From TPA_inf: Saccharomyces (taxonomy: Eukaryota), in assembly GCA_000146045.2 (NCBI GenBank), contig BK006940.2, positions 1 to 64,000 of the forward strand: a stretch of DNA of 64,000 nucleotides. Reading direction: 5' to 3'. The notes below the pieces were generated by a model that did no database searches, had not been told where the DNA came from, and saw only the letters and a list, made by a program, of their open reading frames with translations. Below are positions 3,339 through 54,696 of the stretch, one piece after another; the first letter of the stretch is position 1; every line of letters starts with the position of its first letter. Made by a program: the position numbers and the translations under genes.

Positions 3339-3846
3339 CGTAGAGCTGTCGTTCGGCCTGGCACTCGCTATTTCGTGACAACGTTCCAGGACACGGAAAA
3401 CTCAACTCATTATAGTATCCTCTGTTGAGGTAAAAAAGAGAAAGGGTATCGTAATCCTTTCTATTGAATTTCAAAGTATGCACTTGAAACAACGTGTAGA
3501 CCATCAAGTTGATTTTCTTGGGAATAAGATACTTTGAAGGGATTGGTCCGCCCTGGAAATCTGGTTCGTCTTCAACAAATGTCAGGAACTTTTGTACATT
3601 TTTCCCGACCATGACGGAAATGACAATTTTTTCAAAAGACCTTTTCCTATTCATTGCACCAGTTCTGAATTTTACCACTTTGATTAGGCCAGACTTTTCG
3701 TCTTCGTAGAATGACCGCACTTCCGTGGGGATCGATTCAAATAAAGTTATTGAGGGACAATGTACCAAGTCGTTTTTGTTATTTAGAGCCGACTCAAACT
3801 CGTCAAAGTTTGCTTTTTCAAACTTACGCCTATCGGAAACTTTCAT
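3322..3846 (-). CDS. Y' helicase N-terminal fragment ORF, 174 aa from the first ATG. Corresponds to dubious/uncharacterised ORF YFL064C.
   Basis: The ORF-track entry 3322..4032 contains [51 protein letters not shown]..., identical in character to the YRF1 N-terminus. The Met lies at residue 63 of the track ORF, which places the start at 3846. Confidence 0.7.
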
Positions 3847-4684
3847 TTTATTTTTGTAAGTTTCGAAATTAACAATAGTATGTTGATTGTTATGCTTTTT
3901 GACAAGAAATCCATCAATATAAACAAAAGATTGTCCAGTTTCCGTCTTATCATCATCTAAGAATGTAATAATTAAGCTATTGAGAAGATGCAGAATCTGC
4001 GCTATGCAGGTGCAAATCTCCAGCAGCAGCAAAGAAAATTCAGTTAATAAGAAATCTCACTAAGATAAGCGACTGTCTGTCCCCTTCAAGCACAACATAG
4101 AAAACAGAAGGATGTCTCATTCATCGCTTGATTTCCGGCCTGCAAAAATAAAGTAGTCGGTACGCACTTTCGTTTTCAATTTCCATGGTGCACAGTATCT
4201 TAACTATCTGCTTAGTCGAGGAGAACCAGGATTCGTGGATATTCTCTTGGATACTTCAAACATGGACCTACGCTTAGCCTGCGCTTAGCCTACAACTTCT
4301 TCCGCTCTCGAAAAGACCAATATAATAGAAAGTTATAAATTACATTTCCTTATTAGGTATACGACCTCGCGCTTCGAAGTAGAGGAGCCCTTTTTGGCGT
4401 ACCTACATATGGCGCGTCAGACAGACAAACTTCCCCCAAAAATGTATTACCCCGCCGAATAAGAAAACAGACCCATTCACCCACGACGTATCAAGTTACT
4501 TCCTTGGTGCAATGTCCCACTATAAAAAAATTCCTTGACGCTAGATCGTTGGACTAAAATCTGCGTCCCAATCGCCTAAACAGGAAATATTGCCTATTTT
4601 CGTACAAGGTTACTTCCTAGATGCTATATGTCCCTACGGCCTTGTCTAACACCATCCAGCATGCAATACAGTGACATATATATA

Positions 4685-44392: not shown

Positions 44393-44654
44393 TATTGGTG
44401 GTTATATTAGCAGATAGGTAAAAAAGGAGAAAGAAGTACTAAGGAAATTGTCGATTTAGTTTTCGTCAAAGATCTTATACTTTGCCAAGAAGAATAGACG
44501 ATATAAACAGAAAAATAAGTGAAAAGAACACGTAAAAAACGGCACATTTTAATATATTTCAAATTTTTTTTTCATCAACGACAAAAGGAATGCATTTTAT
44601 CCACTTTTCGTGTCTCATGACGAGTATACCGATAAACGCCAAATGCGTATTTTA

Positions 44655-45560
44655 TTATCTATTTTGGCCAAAATCAACGTGTCCCGTGGATTCAGCGTGC
44701 CTAGCAACTTCTCTTTCACCCACAAAGGTCATTTGGCAAGTGTTGCATTTGATCTGGGCCTTATGAGTGTTGAAGGAATAGCCAGTTTGCTTCAAATTTG
44801 AGGCCAGTTGCAAAGCTGCTGTTAGAACATCATCTGATTCCGGCTGGTTCTTGTTGAAAACAGTTTTAAACTCGTTCATGGTCAAGGAATCATAGTGGAT
44901 TCCGTTGAACAGTATCAAAATGTAGTTGTCGAACTTGTCCTCGTTGAACTTTTCGATTTTAACAGCGTCAATGTCGACTACATAAATAGCTACTGCGAGT
45001 GCATCGGATATGATACCAATCTCGATGGCTCCACCCCAAGATTCCATTTTCAAAATCCATTGCGCGTAATCTTTGTTAGGTTTGTCCAATATGGCGTCAT
45101 TGAACTTGACGGGGTTGTTGAGGACCTCCTTAGAGACCATCTCCCTGAGGTCACGAACGCTATCTTGTTTGAAGATGCCATAGGCAATAGCATGGAACAG
45201 ACACGAGTTGTCGTCGAGAACAGGATGTACTGATAGGACGTTTTCTCCACTGCCACCAATTGACATCTCAGTGCTCTTCAGCACCCTCTTTGGTTTGGGT
45301 TGTGGTGGTGGCAAACTGAAGCTTTCGTTACTATCAGAGGACTCTATTGTAATCTTTTCACCAGAGTTAATACCCAGCTCGTCCAGCTGGGTTTGTCCCA
45401 AAGAAGCGTCTTCCCCTTGCAAATTGATCCTTTGAGGCGGATATCCAAACCTCATCGTCTTAACATCTACATTGATATGCTCAATAAGATCATTTAGTGT
45501 TGCATCTTGCTTCAAAGTAACGACTTGGTTGATTCCTGCTCCAGTAACTTTCAGTTTCAT
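44655..45560 (-). CDS. OTU1: OTU-family deubiquitinase with N-terminal UBX-like domain and C-terminal C2H2 zinc finger, 301 aa.
   Basis: OTU catalytic Cys context (DDNSCLFHAIAYG) and C-terminal C2H2 (CNTCQMTFVGEREVARHAESTGH). Confidence 0.9.
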   Translation of the reverse strand: MKLKVTGAGINQVVTLKQDATLNDLIEHINVDVKTMRFGYPPQRINLQGEDASLGQTQLDELGINSGEKITIESSDSNESFSLPPPQPKPKRVLKSTEMSIGGSGENVLSVHPVLDDNSCLFHAIAYGIFKQDSVRDLREMVSKEVLNNPVKFNDAILDKPNKDYAQWILKMESWGGAIEIGIISDALAVAIYVVDIDAVKIEKFNEDKFDNYILILFNGIHYDSLTMNEFKTVFNKNQPESDDVLTAALQLASNLKQTGYSFNTHKAQIKCNTCQMTFVGEREVARHAESTGHVDFGQNR

Positions 45561-45719
45561 CTTGAAAGTTTCTTCTCTTGGTTATCTTCTTCAATGTTAT
45601 CTTGTTTTCAAAGGAAAAAGTTGTTATTTGCCACTGAAATCGGCTTATTTCGCCCTTTACTATTAGTTACTACCATTGCCCTATAGAAACGATATATATT
45701 GGTACGAAGAAAATACAGA

Positions 45720-47744
45720 TCACAACTTCAGTTCTACCAATTGCAGCTTCACCAGTTGATGTAATGAGACAGCAATTGAACGTATGTAGAACAGATTAAA
45801 CAATAGCAAAACGACCACAATCAAGTATAAGAACAACCATGTTTCCATGGTGACCTTGAGACCTTGCTGCTCTGCAATTGCGGGAGCCGTAACAACCGCT
45901 TCTCTTGGTTGTTCAAGGTCAACCTCTTTCAACTTATTTTTTACTTCTTTATCATCTTGCTCCTCTTCCTCCTTGCTGATAGTAATTTGGCACTCTTCGA
46001 CATTGTTCTTGATGAACTTGGAAAGAATACGCTCCATTAATTGCGCAGCCTCCAATTGACCATTCTTGCATCCATTTTCAACCATACCTTTGATCCAACT
46101 GGAACCAGTCCATTCCACCCAAAAGGATACCCGTAACAGACACGTTATTTCGTCATTCCAACGGATTAGATACCTTGTCTTAGTTGAGAAACTACCACCA
46201 CTGGGCACGTTCGGAGTGCGTATGCTACTGATAACCTCATAGTAAGTATCAGGATCTTTTCTCTTTATTACCTCAGCAACATAACATGTCGTGGACTTGG
46301 GCCCCGCAGGAAAGTGCAATGCTTTCTCGTATGAATACTCACGCTTCAAAGTCATGGAAGATCCGTCAATGCTCGTGAAATTTGGAATAGTGGTAATTTG
46401 TGAACCTTCTTGACCCCGTAAAAAATCTAGAAGAAATTCGTTTTGCTCTGAGTTGAACATGATCTCAAAAAGTATACCAGGTGCACAATCGAATGGTAAC
46501 TCCTTGAGAACAAACTCGTTATTGGCCATAGGTTCAGCCGGAAAGCTTGTTGAATGATGATATATTGGACCATCATACTGATACGAGGAATCGGCACGCA
46601 GTTTATACGCTTTCTCTTTTTCTTTATCCGGCGAGGAACTCGTACTATTGGGGGTAGTCTCATTTGTAGAGATATTTTCATCGTCATTTTCATTAGTGTC
46701 ATTATCATTAGCGTCTTTATCATTGTTTTCCTCATCGATGGAGTTTATTGCATCATCAATCTCTTTGCCATTTCCTGACTTTTCTGCTTTAGTATTGATG
46801 TTTTCGCTGGCCATGTCCTTCTGCAACAAGGTTCTTGACCACACTTCTTTCATTAATCCAAATGCAGCATCCCTGGATATAAAACCATTAAAGAGAGTTT
46901 TGCCCATCTTTGTTTCGATGGATATTGCGCTGGGGAACAACCCAGCAGCAGAAGTTTTTTCCATAAACGTGACATCTTCGAACGCAATCAGTACTTTAGC
47001 AATCCAACCAAGAACATTGGAGTTGAAGCAGAGATGCGTTTCTGTTATGTATAGTTTCCCCTGGTAAAGCAGCTCTCTATTCAGCCCACAATTAAAATCA
47101 TCCAGTAGTCTGTCATCTTTAGGAACGGACTTGAATGTCTCATGAAAGTCTTTATTTCTTTGCTCAGACGCATAGTGATAAGGTGTGTCCATGTAACGTT
47201 CTTCCACGAATCGTCTATGATCGTAATTGTCTTCTTTCATTTGGGAAGGAGTGAGTCTTGTCTTGACCTCATCAGGCTTTTCCACCTGTTGCAAGGGAGA
47301 GCCTATTTCAGCAATTGTGGCATTACTGATACGGCGGCTTGATCTTCTTTTGGACCCCATGGAAGGCTCCCTTCTATGTGATATAATGCTTGGTTGCGAA
47401 ACTGGCGAAGTTGGCGTAGTTGATCTAGAAACTGGGGATGGCACGTTTGACTTAAACGAAGAGATCATTCCACTGAAGAACGAGGACGTCGAAGAAGTCC
47501 TTGATTGATCGTGCTTGATCTCTGTAGGGTGTTCATCGGCGGCACTTTGGTTTGTAATCACTACTAAATTCTTGCGTACGTCGTTGGTCTCTGTATTTAG
47601 GGGCACTTCTTGCAGTGACTCAGCTTCAGTATCGCCGGCATTGTCATTGTTACTTGCATGCTCAAAGGGGGGACCCAATTGTTTCACAGAATCAGTACTG
47701 TCCTCATTATCTGATACGGGTTCCCAGTTATCTACATCCGACAT
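45720..47744 (-). CDS. LAM5: GRAM plus VASt (StART-like) domain sterol-transfer protein with C-terminal TM anchor, 674 aa. Start taken at MSDVDNWEP... (YFL042C).
   Basis: GRAM-domain region (FHETFKSVPKDDRLLDDFNCGLNRELLYQGKLYITETHLCFNS) followed by a VASt domain and a C-terminal hydrophobic segment (WLFLYLIVVVLLLFNLFYI). Confidence 0.88.
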   Translation of the reverse strand: MSDVDNWEPVSDNEDSTDSVKQLGPPFEHASNNDNAGDTEAESLQEVPLNTETNDVRKNLVVITNQSAADEHPTEIKHDQSRTSSTSSFFSGMISSFKSNVPSPVSRSTTPTSPVSQPSIISHRREPSMGSKRRSSRRISNATIAEIGSPLQQVEKPDEVKTRLTPSQMKEDNYDHRRFVEERYMDTPYHYASEQRNKDFHETFKSVPKDDRLLDDFNCGLNRELLYQGKLYITETHLCFNSNVLGWIAKVLIAFEDVTFMEKTSAAGLFPSAISIETKMGKTLFNGFISRDAAFGLMKEVWSRTLLQKDMASENINTKAEKSGNGKEIDDAINSIDEENNDKDANDNDTNENDDENISTNETTPNSTSSSPDKEKEKAYKLRADSSYQYDGPIYHHSTSFPAEPMANNEFVLKELPFDCAPGILFEIMFNSEQNEFLLDFLRGQEGSQITTIPNFTSIDGSSMTLKREYSYEKALHFPAGPKSTTCYVAEVIKRKDPDTYYEVISSIRTPNVPSGGSFSTKTRYLIRWNDEITCLLRVSFWVEWTGSSWIKGMVENGCKNGQLEAAQLMERILSKFIKNNVEECQITISKEEEEQDDKEVKNKLKEVDLEQPREAVVTAPAIAEQQGLKVTMETWLFLYLIVVVLLLFNLFYIRSIAVSLHQLVKLQLVELKL

Positions 47745-48039
47745 CACCACTAATCTTTTTGTGTAGTTGCCTTCTTCACCCTTTTCTCAGATAGCGAAAT
47801 GGTTGAGTGTTTTAATATAATTGTCAAGATGCTTTATGAAAAAGGGTGGGAGAAACAAGTCCCCCTGCTCAGCGATACGCGATCTCTCTGATCTCAGACA
47901 TAAAGCAAACATTCTATCATGAGTGACATTGAGGATGACGGTAATTGGTAATATCTGACCTTCTGACCTCCACTCAACACAATGCAGAAAGCTATCAAAT
48001 GTTTTGAACCAAACATGAAAGAGATTCAGAAAGTTGCCA

Positions 48040-48925
48040 AGCCAACGTGATGTCACAGGTCAAAGTTTAAGTGAAGGCTATTGGAATCTGCGGATCAGAC
48101 ATTCACTACTACACGGATGGCCAGGTCAGCGTAAAGTAACCTGGGAAGCCCATGACTTTGGGCCACGAATCCAACGGTGCTGTTCTTGAAATTGAAGTAT
48201 CTCAAACTACTGTAAAGCGGGTGATGCAGTAAGCATATAGCCCTCATACCCAAATAGGTTTACCAAAGAGTTTCTGTGAGGCCATTATAGTTTGCAGCTC
48301 AACATACCATTTGCTGCATCACTGACCGTGACGGCACCCTTTGTCAAGAGTTCGTGGTTAACGTCGACTGCGTTTACTGATTACCGTTACAGTGAATTTC
48401 TAGCAAGAGTCCTCTGTAGATGCCACTATTTGTCGCTCTCCATGTAGTAAGGCCGTCCTAGCTGAAGTGTGGGGAGTAAGCTGTAGTTATAGGTGCTGGA
48501 ACAATTGATCTGCTGGCGGGTGCGGTACTCAGAGGGTTTGGTGTTCATGAGTACACATGATTCCAAGAAAGAGCAAAATGGACAGTTTATAAACGCTATG
48601 AAGAACTGCTATAATCAGAAAAAAAGGAAGCCTGATGGATTCGAGTCCTCAGGTACTCAAAAGAGCGTTGAGAATATGCTAAAATGTGTCAAGAACGGTG
48701 GAACAGTTAAGTAGGTTGATATCCACCCCTCGAATGAAAATGTGGGGACCCTCCCAACGAGATTCCTTCAGAGAGATTACATATAAAGTGAAATTCAAGT
48801 ATGACGATGGTGACTACTCCTTGGCCATTGATTTGATGTCTAGGGATTGTATTAATGTCTATGAGTTGATTACCGATAGGCTACTGGTTGATTTCCTTTC
48901 AAAAAAGCTGCTCAAGCTAAGATAG
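48040..48925 (+). pseudogene. Decayed sorbitol/xylitol dehydrogenase (SOR1/SOR2/XYL2-like, zinc MDR family) gene relic with multiple frameshifts, stops and deletions.
   Basis: Frame-hopping translation gives VKAIGICGSDIHYYTDGQVSVK* / PGKPMTLGHESNGAVLEIEVSQTTVKRVMQ*, compare IKATGICGSDIHYY...KAPMVLGHESSGQVVEVGDAVTRVKVGD. Further on it gives GAGTIDLLAGAVLRGFG, compare the Rossmann GAGPVGLL..AVA.AFGA. It ends with EITYKVKFKYDDGDYSLAIDLMSRDCINVYELITDR, compare KLIGCFRYSFGDYRDAVNLVATGKVNVKPLITHK. Confidence 0.75.
48734..48925 (+). CDS. Small ORF of 63 aa (YFL041W-A-like) that is the C-terminal remnant of the SOR-like relic.
   Basis: MKMWGPSQRDSFREITYKVKFKYDDGDYSLAIDLMSRDCINVYELITDRLLVDFLSKKLLKLR. 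The middle part aligns to the polyol-dehydrogenase C-terminus. Confidence 0.5.
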   Translation: MKMWGPSQRDSFREITYKVKFKYDDGDYSLAIDLMSRDCINVYELITDRLLVDFLSKKLLKLR

Positions 48926-49138
48926 GTAAGGTGTTTATAGAATTTATCGAACTGTATCTAAATATTTTTAATATTCTTGTTTTATTACTTTGTGGCTTTT
49001 GTATTCAGTCTGCACCCTGTTTCGCCATCGATTCTTATAATACATACATTTTTATATAAGATCACAGAAAATACGAAGACGTAAAAAAAGAGTTCCGAAT
49101 GAAAGAAGAAAGAATCAAGCACAGGAAGACAAGAAACG

Positions 49139-51007
49139 ATGTTGTTCTACTCGTTCGTGTGGTCTGTACTGGCCGCTAGTGTTGCTTTGGCAAAGACACA
49201 TAAGTTAAACTATACCGCTTCTTGGGTAACTGCCAATCCTGATGGATTGCATGAAAAAAGGATGATTGGTTTTAATGGCGAATGGCCACTTCCAGATATC
49301 CATGTTGAAAAAGGAGATCGTGTTGAGCTTTATTTGACTAACGGCTTTCAAGACAATACTGCTACTTCTCTACATTTCCATGGTCTTTTCCAGAATACGA
49401 GTTTGGGGAACCAGCTTCAAATGGATGGTCCTTCTATGGTGACACAATGTCCCATCGTTCCGGGACAAACATACCTGTACAACTTCACTGTCCCAGAGCA
49501 GGTAGGAACGTTCTGGTACCATGCACACATGGGTGCCCAGTACGGTGACGGTATGAGGGGTGCATTTATCATCCACGATCCGGAGGAGCCCTTCGAATAT
49601 GATCATGAACGAGTCATCACTCTATCGGACCATTATCACGAAAATTATAAAACGGTTACCAAAGAGTTTCTGTCAAGATATAATCCAACCGGTGCTGAAC
49701 CTATTCCTCAAAATATTCTTTTTAATAATACGATGAATGTAACTTTAGATTTTACACCCGGTGAAACGTATCTCTTCAGGTTCTTGAACGTTGGGCTGTT
49801 TGTATCCCAGTATATCATTCTTGAGGATCATGAAATGAGTATAGTAGAGGTGGACGGTGTTTACGTAAAGCCAAACTTTACTGATTCGATATATCTTTCT
49901 GCGGGGCAAAGAATGAGTGTGTTGATTAAAGCTAAAGATAAAATGCCTACAAGAAACTACGCTATGATGCAAATAATGGATGAGACGATGCTTGATGTTG
50001 TCCCACCTGAGTTACAACTCAACCAAACTATCCAAATGAGGTATGGCCACTCGTTGCCGGAGGCACGCGCATTGAACATTGAAGATTGTGACTTGGACCG
50101 CGCCACGAATGACTTTTACCTAGAACCTCTGATTGAGAGAGACCTACTTGCTCACTATGACCACCAAATTGTCATGGATGTAAGAATGGTCAACTTGGGT
50201 GATGGTGTGAAGTATGCATTTTTCAATAATATCACTTACGTCACACCAAAGGTGCCTACTTTGACAACGTTGCTTACCTCAGGAAAGCTTGCGTCAGATC
50301 CTAGAATTTATGGTGATAATATCAATGCGCAGTTATTGAAACATAATGATATCATAGAGGTTGTTCTAAACAATTATGATTCTGGCAGACATCCATTCCA
50401 TTTGCACGGTCATAATTTCCAAATAGTCCAAAAGTCGCCAGGGTTCCATGTTGATGAAGCTTATGACGAATCTGAGCAAGATGAAATGACCGTCCCTTAT
50501 AACGAATCTGCGCCATTACAACCGTTCCCTGAGAGGCCGATGGTGAGAGATACAGTGGTTCTTGAACCTAGTGGACATGTTGTCCTGAGATTTAGAGCTG
50601 ACAACCCTGGTGTCTGGTATTTCCATTGTCATGTAGATTGGCACTTACAACAAGGTTTGGCTTCGGTCTTTATTGAGGCACCCGTTTTACTTCAGGAAAG
50701 GGAAAAGCTTAATGAGAACTATCTGGATATATGCAAAGCCGCTGATATTCCGGTAGTTGGTAATGCTGCAGGTCATTCGAATGATTGGTTTGACTTAAAA
50801 GGATTACCAAGACAACCTGAGCCACTACCAAAGGGATTTACTACTGAAGGATATTTGGCATTGATTATTTCAACCATTATCGGTGTCTGGGGCCTATATT
50901 CCATTGCTCAGTATGGTATTGGCGAGGTTATCCCTAACGATGAGAAGGTGTACCACACGTTAAGGGAAATCTTGGCTGAAAATGAAATAGAGGTTTCTCG
51001 CGGCTAA
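49139..51007 (+). CDS. FET5: Multicopper ferroxidase (Fet3 paralogue) with C-terminal TM, 622 aa.
   Basis: Copper-binding HxH motifs (HFHGLF, WYHAHMG, HPFHLHGH, HCHVDWH) and a C-terminal hydrophobic segment. Confidence 0.93.
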   Translation: MLFYSFVWSVLAASVALAKTHKLNYTASWVTANPDGLHEKRMIGFNGEWPLPDIHVEKGDRVELYLTNGFQDNTATSLHFHGLFQNTSLGNQLQMDGPSMVTQCPIVPGQTYLYNFTVPEQVGTFWYHAHMGAQYGDGMRGAFIIHDPEEPFEYDHERVITLSDHYHENYKTVTKEFLSRYNPTGAEPIPQNILFNNTMNVTLDFTPGETYLFRFLNVGLFVSQYIILEDHEMSIVEVDGVYVKPNFTDSIYLSAGQRMSVLIKAKDKMPTRNYAMMQIMDETMLDVVPPELQLNQTIQMRYGHSLPEARALNIEDCDLDRATNDFYLEPLIERDLLAHYDHQIVMDVRMVNLGDGVKYAFFNNITYVTPKVPTLTTLLTSGKLASDPRIYGDNINAQLLKHNDIIEVVLNNYDSGRHPFHLHGHNFQIVQKSPGFHVDEAYDESEQDEMTVPYNESAPLQPFPERPMVRDTVVLEPSGHVVLRFRADNPGVWYFHCHVDWHLQQGLASVFIEAPVLLQEREKLNENYLDICKAADIPVVGNAAGHSNDWFDLKGLPRQPEPLPKGFTTEGYLALIISTIIGVWGLYSIAQYGIGEVIPNDEKVYHTLREILAENEIEVSRG

Positions 51008-51349
51008 TTAAACAAGAAAATATAAAAGAAAAATGAAAGAAGTTTATATTCATATTGATGATTTGCAATCCTAAAAAAAATGTAGCACTGTAAATACTGC
51101 TTACTATTGAGTATTTTCATTTTGTTCATTCCATTCCCTATATAATATTCATACGTAATCAAATCTATTGCTTTTTTTTTCTCTTTTATTTCGTTGTTTT
51201 AGCTCTGACGTTGTGACGCTCAGCCAAGAACGTCACAAAAAAAGGATGAAAATCAAAAAACAAAATATTCAATAAGTGTAATATGAGAAGAGAAAAAAGA
51301 AAGAACAAGTACAGTTTCTAACATTATACTTTAAAAATTATTAAGCACA

Positions 51350-52972
51350 ATGACAGCAATGAAAGCTATTGTCTGGAGACTTCCCAAGATGCCGAAAATC
51401 AAAATTACAAAAACTTATGAAGTTACGAAAATTACGGCGATATTGACACTAGTAGGATTTATAATGGGCCTTGAGGTGCCGTCATTGGCAACTTTTCTCA
51501 CAAACAAAACGTTTAATGAGTACTTCAAGTATCCAACTCCTTTACAACAAGGTTTACTCATGGGGTCCACCCCCCTGGGTGGTATCATGGGATGTTTTAT
51601 TTGCTGCATAATGAATGATAGATTCAGTAGAATATATCAATTTCAATCGGGAATAATAATATGGAATATTGTTACGTTATTGAACTTTTGTATTTGGGAT
51701 ATATTAGGTTTACTAATTTGCCGGATGATCAAGGGTATGATCCTTGGGAACTTTTCAATTTTAGTAGCATCCTACGCAAATGAAGTTATCCCCCGCGGCA
51801 AGCGTGGAAGTACGATGAGCTATATTCAATTGTGTTTAACCATTGGAATTCTTGTTATGCATTATTTGTGCATTGCATTAAGTCTATGGGATTCTCATTT
51901 TGCGTTCCGTATAGCGTGGTGCATAGGAATCATTCCTGGATTACTGTTCTGGATGGCTAGCTACGCTCTACCTGAATCTTATCACTGGCTAGTACTACAT
52001 GGGAAGATGAGTGAAGCTCAGGAAATTCAGCACAATTTAGCCAAAAAGTTTAATGAAAGCCAGCCAAGGGATGCAGTCCCTGAGATGAGTAAGATCGAAT
52101 TAGCAGGAGATTTTTGGATTGGAGTTAATGATTTGGACTTCTCCAAAAAATTACCTCGGGGTTCGTTTAAGCCTTTGATTCTTGGAATGACTTTACAGTT
52201 ATTGGTTCAATTTAGCGGTATAAACATTATCCTTGGTTATATTACATACATTTGCGAGATTGTAGGGCTTGAAGGCAATGTAAAACTATTCACCAGTTCC
52301 ATTCCATATTTCATCAACATGGTTTTGAGCTTGTTACCGATTACATTCATTGATTACACTAGCAGAAAGCTAATTACCTTGTTGGGTGGCTTTCCCATTA
52401 GTGGGTTGCTCATTACAATCGGCGCATTATTTGTGAAGTATGGTCAAGACACCAAGCCCATCGACGGCAATAGGAGTTTAGTTTGGTCAATTGGAGAAAA
52501 CCCGTTTGTGGGAGGATGGATTCTAACTTTATGCTTTCTAATTGTTGGAATATTTGCCATGAGCCTTTCCAGTATACCTTGGGTTTACACGAATGAAATG
52601 TTGCCCTCACGAGTGAAAGTTAAGGGATTTGCCATTTGCGTAACGTTTGGATGGTTGGGCAATTTTATTTTAACGTTTCTATGCCCTGTGATGATTGAAA
52701 GATTAAAAGGCACAACATTTATAATATTTGGATCTTTGACATTCTTGATATCACTTTCAGTTTTGATTTGGTTCCCAGAAACAAAGGGTATGAGCATAGA
52801 AGATATTGATAAATTCTTCGAATTTGAGAGTAAAGAGGGCACCAATTTACATGGGGAAAAGGGTATCAAAACGCCGGACTCAAATTCTAATGGCGGTTCT
52901 ACAAGATCCTCCCAAGAAGGGCAATTGCATAAACCTATAAAACTGAAAAGCGATGAAGAGATGATCATATGA
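51350..52972 (+). CDS. MFS sugar-transporter-like membrane protein, 540 aa (YFL040W), divergent from the HXT family.
   Basis: 12 predicted TM segments and sugar-porter-like motifs (VIPRGKRGS resembles the R-x-G-R-R loop; PESYHWLVLHGK resembles PESPRWL). Confidence 0.85.
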   Translation: MTAMKAIVWRLPKMPKIKITKTYEVTKITAILTLVGFIMGLEVPSLATFLTNKTFNEYFKYPTPLQQGLLMGSTPLGGIMGCFICCIMNDRFSRIYQFQSGIIIWNIVTLLNFCIWDILGLLICRMIKGMILGNFSILVASYANEVIPRGKRGSTMSYIQLCLTIGILVMHYLCIALSLWDSHFAFRIAWCIGIIPGLLFWMASYALPESYHWLVLHGKMSEAQEIQHNLAKKFNESQPRDAVPEMSKIELAGDFWIGVNDLDFSKKLPRGSFKPLILGMTLQLLVQFSGINIILGYITYICEIVGLEGNVKLFTSSIPYFINMVLSLLPITFIDYTSRKLITLLGGFPISGLLITIGALFVKYGQDTKPIDGNRSLVWSIGENPFVGGWILTLCFLIVGIFAMSLSSIPWVYTNEMLPSRVKVKGFAICVTFGWLGNFILTFLCPVMIERLKGTTFIIFGSLTFLISLSVLIWFPETKGMSIEDIDKFFEFESKEGTNLHGEKGIKTPDSNSNGGSTRSSQEGQLHKPIKLKSDEEMII

Positions 52973-53259
52973 TACACGGTCCAATGGATAAACATTTTTT
53001 ATCAACACTATGATATATAAATATAATAGTTTTTCGTATATATATTCCTTTTTTTGGTCAATTTTTGAAATTTTCGTAGAAAAGGGAGAGACAAAACACA
53101 TTATATCAATGAAAACGTACAAAAAGTAGATAAAGTCAGTGCTTAAACACGTCTTTTCCTTAAAAATACTTTATTATTTTTATTTTATTGAGAGGGTGGT
53201 TTAAAAATAGAAATAGAGAGAGAGGTACATACATAAACATACGCGCACAAAAGCAGAGA

Positions 53260-54696
53260 TTAGAAACACTTGTGGTGAACGATAGATGGACCACTTTCGT
53301 CGTATTCTTGTTTTGAGATCCACATTTGTTGGAAGGTAGTCAAAGAAGCCAAGATAGAACCACCAATCCAGACGGAGTACTTTCTTTCTGGAGGAGCAAT
53401 GATCTTGACCTTCATGGAAGATGGAGCCAAAGCGGTGATTTCCTTTTGCATTCTTTCGGCAATACCTGGGAACATGGTGGTACCACCGGACATAACGATG
53501 TTACCGTATAATTCCTTACGGACATCGACATCACACTTCATGATGGAGTTGTAAGTAGTTTGGTCAATACCGGCAGATTCCAAACCCAAAACAGAAGGAT
53601 GGAACAAAGCTTCTGGGGCTCTGAATCTTTCGTTACCAATAGTGATGACTTGACCATCTGGAAGTTCGTAGGATTTTTCAATTGAAGAAGATTGAGCAGC
53701 GGTTTGCATTTCTTGTTCGAAGTCCAAGGCGACGTAACATAGTTTTTCCTTGATGTCACGGACAATTTCTCTTTCAGCAGTGGTGGAGAAAGAGTAACCA
53801 CGTTCACTCAAGATCTTCATCAAGTAGTCAGTCAAATCTCTACCGGCCAAATCGATTCTCAAAATGGCGTGAGGTAGAGAGAAACCAGCGTAAATTGGAA
53901 CGACGTGAGTAACACCATCACCGGAATCCAAAACAATACCAGTAGTTCTACCGGAAGAGTACAAGGACAAAACGGCTTGGATGGAAACGTAGAAGGCTGG
54001 AACGTTGAAAGTTTCAAACATAATTTGAGTCATCTTTTCTCTGTTTGATTTAGGGTTCATTGGAGCTTCAGTCAAAAGAACAGGGTGTTCTTCTGGGGCA
54101 ACTCTCAATTCGTTGTAGAAGGTATGATGCCAGATCTTTTCCATATCGTCCCAGTTGGTGACAATACCGTGTTCAATTGGGTAACGTAAAGTCAAGATAC
54201 CTCTCTTGGATTGAGCTTCATCACCAACGTAGGAGTCTTTTTGACCCATACCGACCATGATACCTTGGTGTCTTGGTCTACCGACGATAGATGGGAAGAC
54301 AGCACGAGGAGCGTCGTCACCGGCAAAACCGGCTTTACACATACCAGAACCGTTATCAATAACCAAAGCAGCAACCTCTAAACATATAATATAGCAACAA
54401 AAAGAATGAAGCAATCGATGTTAGTACATGAGACTTAGTAACAGTAGCAAATAAAAGAAGAATATCACTATCACTTATCACGAAAATATTTCAGTTTTTT
54501 TTTTTTTTCCAAATTTCAAGCCCCTATTTATTCCAATAATATCGTGGTTATTACAGATCAGTCAATATAGGAGGTTATGGGAGAGTGAAAAATAGTAAAA
54601 AAAGGTAAAAGAGAAATCTCTCGAGCAATTGGGACCGTGCAATTCTTCTTACAGTTAAATGGGATGGTGCAAGCGCTAGAACATACCAGAATCCAT
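53260..54696 (-). CDS. ACT1: Actin. Two exons on the minus strand: exon 1 at 54687..54696 (ATGGATTCTG) and exon 2 at 53260..54377, with the intron at 54378..54686.
   Basis: Exon 2 translation is the complete actin sequence from [30 protein letters not shown]... to ...IVHHKCF. ATGGATTCTG followed by GTATGT is present on the minus strand at 54696..54681. Confidence 0.97.
54378..54686 (-). other. ACT1: ACT1 spliceosomal intron, 309 nt.
   Basis: 5' splice site GTATGT (plus-strand acatac at 54681-54686), branchpoint TACTAAC (plus-strand gttagta at 54420-54426), and 3' splice site TAG immediately before AGGTTGCTGCT at 54377. Confidence 0.95.

Follow-up and report, generated by a model that had tools for sequence, protein, structure and literature searches.

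The closest described counterpart of the locus treated here is REMYFL041W-A, a gene remnant of Saccharomyces cerevisiae reported at 47982-48942 on the Watson strand, with the chromosome misprinted as IV (Dietrich, Magwene and McCusker, bioRxiv 10.1101/2023.09.07.545205; PMC12157680). That remnant overlaps the annotated open reading frame (ORF) YFL041W-A, regarded there as a dubious fragment, and is described as the whole-genome duplication (WGD) paralogue of YLR070C/XYL2, with seven frameshifts, ten stops, and not a single intact allele among 94 + 1011 strains. According to the same study, S. paradoxus N44 and CBS432 both carry the gene at full length, some other S. paradoxus strains have it disrupted, and it is also intact in S. 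mikatae and S. arboricola, where XYL2 was lost instead; most duplicates lost after the WGD left no trace, and the loss of this one has been reciprocal among Saccharomyces species (Dietrich et al., PMC12157680). The remnant, its origin as the twin of XYL2, and the status of YFL041W-A are thus already known. Here, we analyze this locus in the initial 64 kb of chromosome VI from S. cerevisiae S288C (the window), in which the coordinates of an ORF at 48734..48925 are those quoted for YFL041W-A on NC_001138.5.

Our analysis independently reproduces the published start (47982), the ten stops, the WGD origin, the intact state of the gene in what is probably an S. paradoxus-like genome, and the view of YFL041W-A as a dubious fragment, and differs in the number of frameshifting indels (eight here, seven in the published description) and in the end of the remnant (∼48950 vs. 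48942, due to a 2-nucleotide (nt) insertion at 48943). Added here are substitution rates by codon position and at four-fold sites, a relative-rate test, a rough timing for the death of the gene, and the replacement, before that death, of a cofactor-specifying Asp. In a literature search, no report of the remnant earlier than the preprint was found, and the combination of "gene relics" with XYL2 gave only papers on xylose engineering.

Two groups of intact genes and one class of dead ones invite comparison. XYL2 (YLR070C; xylitol dehydrogenase, D-xylulose reductase) shares with the remnant the MDR family (ADH_N plus ADH_zinc_N domains), a pre-duplication ancestor, and, with moderate support, a sister position in a neighbor-joining tree; it is intact, whereas the remnant is disabled, its amino acid identity is 38% (45% with the intact sister-species orthologue), and it has the motif VFVD where the chromosome VI lineage has VFMST and a deletion of ∼11 residues. 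SOR1 and SOR2 (YJR159W and YDL246C) belong to the same family and have the same catalytic motifs, but lie in an unrelated, subtelomeric neighborhood and form a separate clade. Like the remnant, yeast gene relics (unitary pseudogenes) are disabled at the ancestral position, are recognized solely through multi-frame similarity together with gene order, and evolve neutrally; unlike most lost WGD duplicates, the remnant appears to be unusually recent, with its loss following the split of S. cerevisiae from S. paradoxus.

A Dead Polyol Dehydrogenase at the LAM5-FET5 Interval

We interpret 47982..48950 (plus strand, end approximate) as a non-functional unitary pseudogene at its original site, the second WGD copy of an ancestral XYL2-type zinc-dependent polyol dehydrogenase, and place the probability of this reading at about 0.93. 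An initial annotation, made from the letters of the window and a list of ORFs, had described three plus-strand frames that encode blocks of an MDR polyol dehydrogenase in N-to-C order, and had read the interval as a dead gene; both claims are borne out. The three-frame translation of 47900-49000 contains every block quoted there, in the expected order, in all three plus-strand frames and with stops between them: VKAIGICGSDIHYY and PMTLGHESNGAVLEIEV in the first frame, AVVIGAGTIDLLAGAVLRGFG in the second, and FKYDDGDYSLAIDLMSRDCINVYELITDR again in the first, to which the third frame adds the family blocks KAGDAVSI.PSYPNRFTKEF and FESSGTQKSVENMLKCVKNGGTV.

Domain and similarity searches point to the same family. 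The GroES-like domain ADH_N (PF08240) is matched from one raw frame at E = 4.4e-8 (33.7 bits, against a cut-off of 23.5 bits), and the catalytic zinc ligands are kept, namely the Cys in GICGSDIHYY and the His-Glu in LGHES. Of the two Pfam domains that the initial annotation had proposed for a search, this one is found, whereas ADH_zinc_N (PF00107) gives only a weak match (E = 0.16; 12.4 bits, under the cut-off of 31.8 bits), with GxGxxG degraded to G-A-G-T-I-D. Homology in the Rossmann region is clear through the intact orthologue described below (P0001), with 59% identity by tblastn over its residues 122-195. Stitched together by hand, the N-terminal half resembles xylitol and sorbitol dehydrogenases of solved structure (E = 4e-18 to 1e-13), among them the xylitol dehydrogenase 7y9p (E = 3.9e-18). 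When five family members were compared with the whole window by tblastn, the remnant was the sole significant match in 64 kb, with frames 3, 2, 1, 3, and 2 in the correct order, at E values of 5.6e-17 for Xyl2, 6.5e-15 for Sor1 (sum E), 1.2e-21 for the Torulaspora delbrueckii protein, and 2.5e-48 for the orthologue. The search with Sor1 and Xyl2 that the initial annotation had proposed therefore gives significant, ordered, three-frame matches, and the similarity to zinc-dependent polyol dehydrogenases is far above chance. Such an enzyme requires about 345-360 codons in one uninterrupted ORF, and in its place the locus holds ten in-frame stops and eight frameshifting indels; the remnant is a member of the MDR polyol dehydrogenase family by descent, dead and non-functional as an enzyme. 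A search of the protein database revealed no intact S. cerevisiae protein closer to it than the Sor proteins and Xyl2.

A search of the protein database with the stitched translation yielded one outstanding match, P0001, a protein of 344 amino acids with both ADH_N and ADH_zinc_N (E = 7e-107). Its gene (1035 nt) occupies positions 3358-4392 of a 10-kb contig (L001), between the orthologues of LAM5 and FET5, in the order OTU1, GRAM/VASt gene (LAM5), dehydrogenase, triple Cu-oxidase of 622 amino acids (FET5), sugar transporter, actin. End to end, this contig is collinear with 44622..54593 of the window at 88.6% identity, and its flanking coding regions are 89-91% identical. The syntenic comparison at the LAM5-FET5 interval, posed in advance, thus finds an intact gene of 344 amino acids in a genome that is probably S. 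paradoxus-like, as judged by its ∼89-90% coding identity. In the sense in which Dietrich et al. define a gene remnant, the S. cerevisiae copy lies at the ancestral site, carries several disabling mutations, and is matched, outside the clade, by an intact gene at the equivalent site.

Pattern of Decay

The decay was mapped by global alignment of the remnant to the intact 1035-nt gene, with stops counted in the projected ancestral frame. Over its full length (47982..48950, with the approximate end noted above), the remnant retains 77.4% identity to the intact gene and has undergone 11 indels, with 68 nt deleted and 2 inserted. It begins at the ancestral ATG (47982), which is still present, and extends beyond both ends of the 48040-48925 interval originally proposed; at 969 vs. 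1035 nt, it is ∼6% shorter than the intact gene, instead of the ∼20% first estimated. Frameshifts result from deletions after 48047 (7 nt), 48202 (1 nt), 48327 (1 nt), 48537 (14 nt), 48748 (1 nt), 48762 (1 nt), and 48891 (16 nt), and from the 2-nt insertion at 48943, and three further deletions (6, 15, and 6 nt) are in frame. The ancestral-frame stops fall at 48068, 48137, 48238, 48277, 48378, 48393, 48417, 48459, 48477, and 48712.

The segments between these lesions can be assigned to the parts of the former enzyme, all on the plus strand. The N-terminal segment (47982..48047; MQKAIKCFEPNMKEIQKVAKPT) aligns to residues 1-21 of P0001 and is followed by the 7-nt frameshifting deletion. The catalytic-zinc region of ADH_N (48056..48193, from GICGSD to LGHES, within the PF08240 match) is 73.9% identical to residues 28-73 and is interrupted by the stops at 48068 and 48137. 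The remainder of ADH_N continues in the third frame (48205..48327), where the stops at 48238 and 48277 separate KAGDAVSI, PSYPNRFTKEFL, and GHYSLQLNIPFAAS, and 1-nt deletions occur after 48202 and 48327. In the next segment (48330..48537), which held the substrate/zinc Glu and the Rossmann GxGxxG, EPLSV has become a stop followed by MPLFV, and GAGTID is without the last Gly, so that both this Gly and the Glu of EPLSV are lost; five stops (48378, 48393, 48417, 48459, and 48477) are found here. The middle of the nucleotide-binding domain (48538..48748; LVFMSTHDSKKEQ through FESSGTQKSVENMLKCVKNGGTVK, which ends in a stop) has the 14-nt deletion at its upstream border (after 48537) and internal deletions of 15 and 6 nt, and is the site of the weak PF00107 match.

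Origin by Whole-Genome Duplication

The initial annotation had taken the dead gene for a SOR-like one, recording an ancient dispersal or loss of that family. Amino acid identity to the remnant is 38% for Xyl2, 35% for Sor1, and 38% for the syntenic gene of T. delbrueckii; because values of 35% vs. 38% cannot separate SOR from XYL2 affinity, gene order is needed to assign the remnant. In Kluyveromyces lactis and T. delbrueckii, which have no duplication, there is a single gene in the order OTU1 - RFU1 - LAM <- -> MED14 -> XYL2 -> FET5 -> MEF1, and Vanderwaltozyma polyspora has LAM-MED14-XYL2-FET5 with ACT1 nearby. The XYL2 locus of Saccharomyces (chromosome XII type) reads RPL10-BUD20-RFU1-LAM6 <- -> MED14 -> XYL2 -> MEF1, and the chromosome VI locus reads OTU1-LAM5 <- -> remnant -> FET5. 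The ancestral genes are split between these two regions, with only the LAM gene and the dehydrogenase common to both, and the regions are therefore sisters from the whole-genome duplication. LAM6, which flanks XYL2, is the duplicate of LAM5; a GRAM/VASt gene is in the matching position at all XYL2 loci examined, and a triple Cu-oxidase gene lies immediately 3′ of XYL2 in K. lactis, T. delbrueckii, and V. polyspora. With the non-duplicated yeasts as the reference, the genes retained on chromosome VI interleave with those kept around XYL2, as for an ohnolog of XYL2.

The order OTU1 - RFU1 - LAM <- -> MED14 -> XYL2 -> FET5 -> MEF1 represents, on this reading, the state before duplication, after which chromosome XII retained RFU1-LAM6-MED14-XYL2-MEF1 and chromosome VI OTU1-LAM5-(XYL2 twin)-FET5. 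In the neighbor-joining tree, the remnant and P0001 group together with 100% bootstrap support and are sister to the Saccharomyces XYL2 at 73.5%, with the SOR clade elsewhere and the deeper nodes unsupported. The support for the XYL2 grouping is moderate, and the assignment of the remnant as its twin relies mainly on gene order.

An origin from the subtelomeric SOR1/SOR2 family, by ectopic duplication to an internal site and subsequent death, has some points in its favor: Sor1 does match the locus by tblastn, the SOR genes are mobile and subtelomeric, and zero to two SOR copies occur on seven different chromosome ends among strains (Dietrich et al., PMC12157680). We nevertheless consider it extremely improbable. 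The site of the remnant is the ancestral XYL2 slot, with a dehydrogenase between LAM/MED14 and FET5 in each non-duplicated or independently sampled species examined, which replaces the earlier view of a dispersed SOR gene. A SOR gene (encoding P0144) is surrounded by HXT, MPH, COS, and DUF468 genes at ∼9 kb from a chromosome end and has no neighbors in common with the remnant, which itself sits in a conserved collinear block. Identity to Sor1 is not above that to Xyl2 or to the T. delbrueckii gene, so Sor1 is not the closest relative, and the tree sets the remnant apart from the SOR clade and with Xyl2.

Several points weigh against reading the locus as a functionless WGD twin of XYL2. The S. 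paradoxus-like identity of the genome with the intact gene is judged from coding identity of ∼89-90%. The grouping with XYL2 joins two long branches at only 73.5% support and may reflect long-branch attraction. Nearly all of the S. cerevisiae assemblies examined carry an intact YFL041W-A, and the status of a gene remnant is no proof that every residual piece of it lacks function, as Dietrich et al. concede. As to the persistence of YFL041W-A, it is uninformative about selection, given the low diversity of the species, and neutrality predicts the same.

As a side observation on the three lineages of this family, the SOR protein P0144 is 67% identical to the gene product of the ancestral locus in T. 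delbrueckii (P0115), compared with 56% for Xyl2 (P0129) and 49% for the intact chromosome VI copy. As judged by these identities, both syntenic duplicates appear to be fast-evolving, and the mobile subtelomeric SOR copy appears to keep the conservative sequence, a hint that the ancestral function may reside with SOR.

Neutral Evolution and Timing of the Loss

The divergence of the remnant from the intact gene on L001 is 0.186, 0.199, and 0.294 at codon positions 1, 2, and 3, respectively, compared with about 0.05, 0.02, and 0.22 for four flanking genes (OTU1, LAM5, FET5, and YFL040W), which makes divergence at the first two positions 3-12 times faster in the remnant. With distances corrected by the Jukes-Cantor formula, third positions in the remnant (K = 0.373) equal the four-fold sites of the flanking genes (K = 0.371), and positions 1 and 2 (K = 0.21-0.23) approximate the sum of a complete neutral branch (0.185) and a small constrained one. 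In a relative-rate count with 22 relatives as the outgroup, restricted to sites at least 80% conserved among them, the S. cerevisiae branch carries 28 changes and the sister branch 1 (chi-square 25). Polarization used protein-level outgroups only, because a search of the protein database for a second outgroup orthologue (S. mikatae, S. arboricola) returned no sequence with between 49% and 100% identity to P0001.

The remnant evolves neutrally on the S. cerevisiae lineage. By the same counts, the sister copy would be under purifying selection, and the S. cerevisiae copy would have been unconstrained for essentially all of the time since the species split, a rough timing obtained with protein-level outgroups. 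Inactivation of the chromosome VI twin would accordingly date to the base of the S. cerevisiae branch or very close to it, and subsequent neutral drift would have produced the 10 stops, the 8 frameshifts, and the 3 in-frame deletions, and removed key residues.

If the WGD is given its usual date, a loss of this kind comes roughly 100 million years after duplication. The remnant would represent a clean, datable case of very late loss of a WGD duplicate. It also bears on two topics that are not new: reciprocal gene loss, in which species lose different copies (as set out in the preprint), and the natural xylitol and sorbitol metabolism of yeasts used for pentose fermentation.

Cofactor Motif of the Lost Enzyme

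In xylitol dehydrogenases, the Asp at the end of the second Rossmann strand sets the preference for NAD+. At the corresponding position of the window (48538-48560; LVFMSTHD), both the remnant and P0001 (residues ∼197-204) have VFMST, where Xyl2, Sor1, and the K. lactis, T. delbrueckii, and Candida enzymes have VFVD; the Asp that ends this strand is a Ser in both. The chromosome VI lineage is also without ∼11 residues of the nucleotide-binding domain just 3′ of VFMST that are present in all relatives. Since the intact sister copy shares the change, the NAD-specifying Asp had been replaced before the chromosome VI gene died, and this duplicate may have changed its cofactor preference before it was lost. 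More speculatively, and with low probability, the lost enzyme may therefore have been a neofunctionalized, possibly NADP(H)-preferring, polyol dehydrogenase, the loss of which would help explain the poor handling of pentitols by S. cerevisiae.

Status of YFL041W-A

The annotated 63-codon ORF YFL041W-A lies inside the remnant (48734..48925, plus strand), with its ATG outside the ancestral frame. Only codons 11-52 (48763..48891, plus strand; projected translation SFREITYKVKFKYDDGDYSLAIDLMSRDCINVYELITDRLLV) are in that frame, flanked by the 1-nt deletion that follows 48762 and by the 16-nt deletion that follows 48891. By manual count from the alignment, these 42 of 63 codons are 71% identical to P0001, and the ATG with the first 10 codons, as well as the last 11 codons with the stop, are out of frame. 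The old frame enters the register of the ORF through the pair of 1-nt deletions that follow 48748 and 48762 and leaves it at the 16-nt deletion. The initial annotation had explained YFL041W-A as the C-terminal tail of the dead gene; it is indeed a fragment of that gene and not an independent one, though not a wholly ancestral one. On L001, the corresponding region is internal to the 344-codon ORF, and the start, frame, and stop of YFL041W-A are not kept as a unit in the sister species. The "fungal homology" that it displays arises because its middle 42 codons run in the old dehydrogenase frame.

YFL041W-A could instead be a genuine small gene, with a 63-residue peptide salvaged from the pseudogene, transcribed, translated, and endowed with a function of its own. 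In addition to its persistence, with ORFs of 61-72 amino acids in 24 sequence variants across more than 900 S. cerevisiae contigs, and to the concession that functional pieces may survive in remnants, this would be consistent with its annotation history at SGD, which reportedly began from homology and reverse-transcription PCR (Kessler et al. 2003, as cited by Dietrich et al.). We judge the proposal very unlikely. The start and end of the ORF exist solely through lineage-specific 1-nt and 16-nt deletions, and the homology is fully accounted for by the dead dehydrogenase frame. Divergence is neutral over the whole interval, including YFL041W-A, with identity of 0.69-0.80 per 115-nt segment across the ORF, not above that in the rest of the remnant. 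Among the more than 900 contigs, there are at least 15 protein variants, and about 12 amino acid polymorphisms and one stop-loss allele segregate in its 63 codons. Furthermore, the 42 in-frame residues correspond to an internal piece of a Rossmann fold, which would be unlikely to fold alone. Among the papers found to mention YFL041W-A, none shows a function. Salvage in a broader sense, in which YFL041W-A or a transcript across the remnant serves as a micropeptide gene or as a regulatory transcript acting on the adjacent FET5 or LAM5 promoters, strikes us as a similarly long shot; if true, it would be gene birth from a pseudogene caught in the act. On the preferred reading of the locus as a dead XYL2 twin, YFL041W-A is most probably an accidental open frame inside the remnant, without function.

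The practical consequence is mainly one of annotation: YFL041W-A is best regarded as a piece of a gene remnant and not as an uncharacterized protein, and its homology traps automated pipelines. In GenBank, an S. cerevisiae record of 61 amino acids (ONH78970.1; P0241) labels the fragment "putative D-xylulose reductase A," a case of automated annotation spreading the name of an enzyme onto a piece of a pseudogene.

Neighboring Genes and Other Observations

Around the remnant, SEC53, OTU1, and LAM5 are on the minus strand, and FET5 (622 amino acids) and a sugar-transporter gene are on the plus strand. The two synteny anchors are LAM5 (GRAM/VASt protein; 45720..47744, minus strand), the upstream neighbor in divergent orientation, which is collinear with L001 at 89.1% identity, and FET5 (multicopper oxidase; 49139..51007, plus strand), the downstream neighbor, at 90.6% identity. 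No RNA family was detected at E <= 1 when both strands of 47500-49300 were scanned with Rfam, and a repeat search returned two short chance matches only, which leaves a transposon, RNA gene, or repeat-mediated origin without support. Minus-strand ORFs over the interval are all 89 amino acids or shorter and show no sign of being genes, although no separate family-similarity search was made for them; a blastn search of the interval against a plasmid collection gave no match, as expected for a yeast chromosome.

The gene models on either side differ in length between the two genomes. The LAM5 orthologue on L001 is called at 704 amino acids and exceeds the S. cerevisiae ORF (674 amino acids; ATG at 47744) by ∼30 N-terminal codons, and this extra part (3130-3214 of L001) corresponds to intergenic positions 47745-47834 of the window; the difference is probably a choice of start by the gene caller. 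The sugar transporter YFL040W, which follows FET5, has 540 amino acids in the window vs. 524 on L001 (51350-51388 vs. 6823). Its alignment shows 10 columns with gaps in the intergenic region upstream and 9 inside the gene, and on L001 a separate ORF of 64 amino acids lies just upstream, such that the real start codon may not be that of the longest-ORF call. The actin coding segment (53260-54366 of the window; 8684-9790 of L001) is 99.5% identical, in comparison with 89-91% in its neighbors, which is the extreme constraint expected of ACT1 and serves as an internal control for the divergence estimates.

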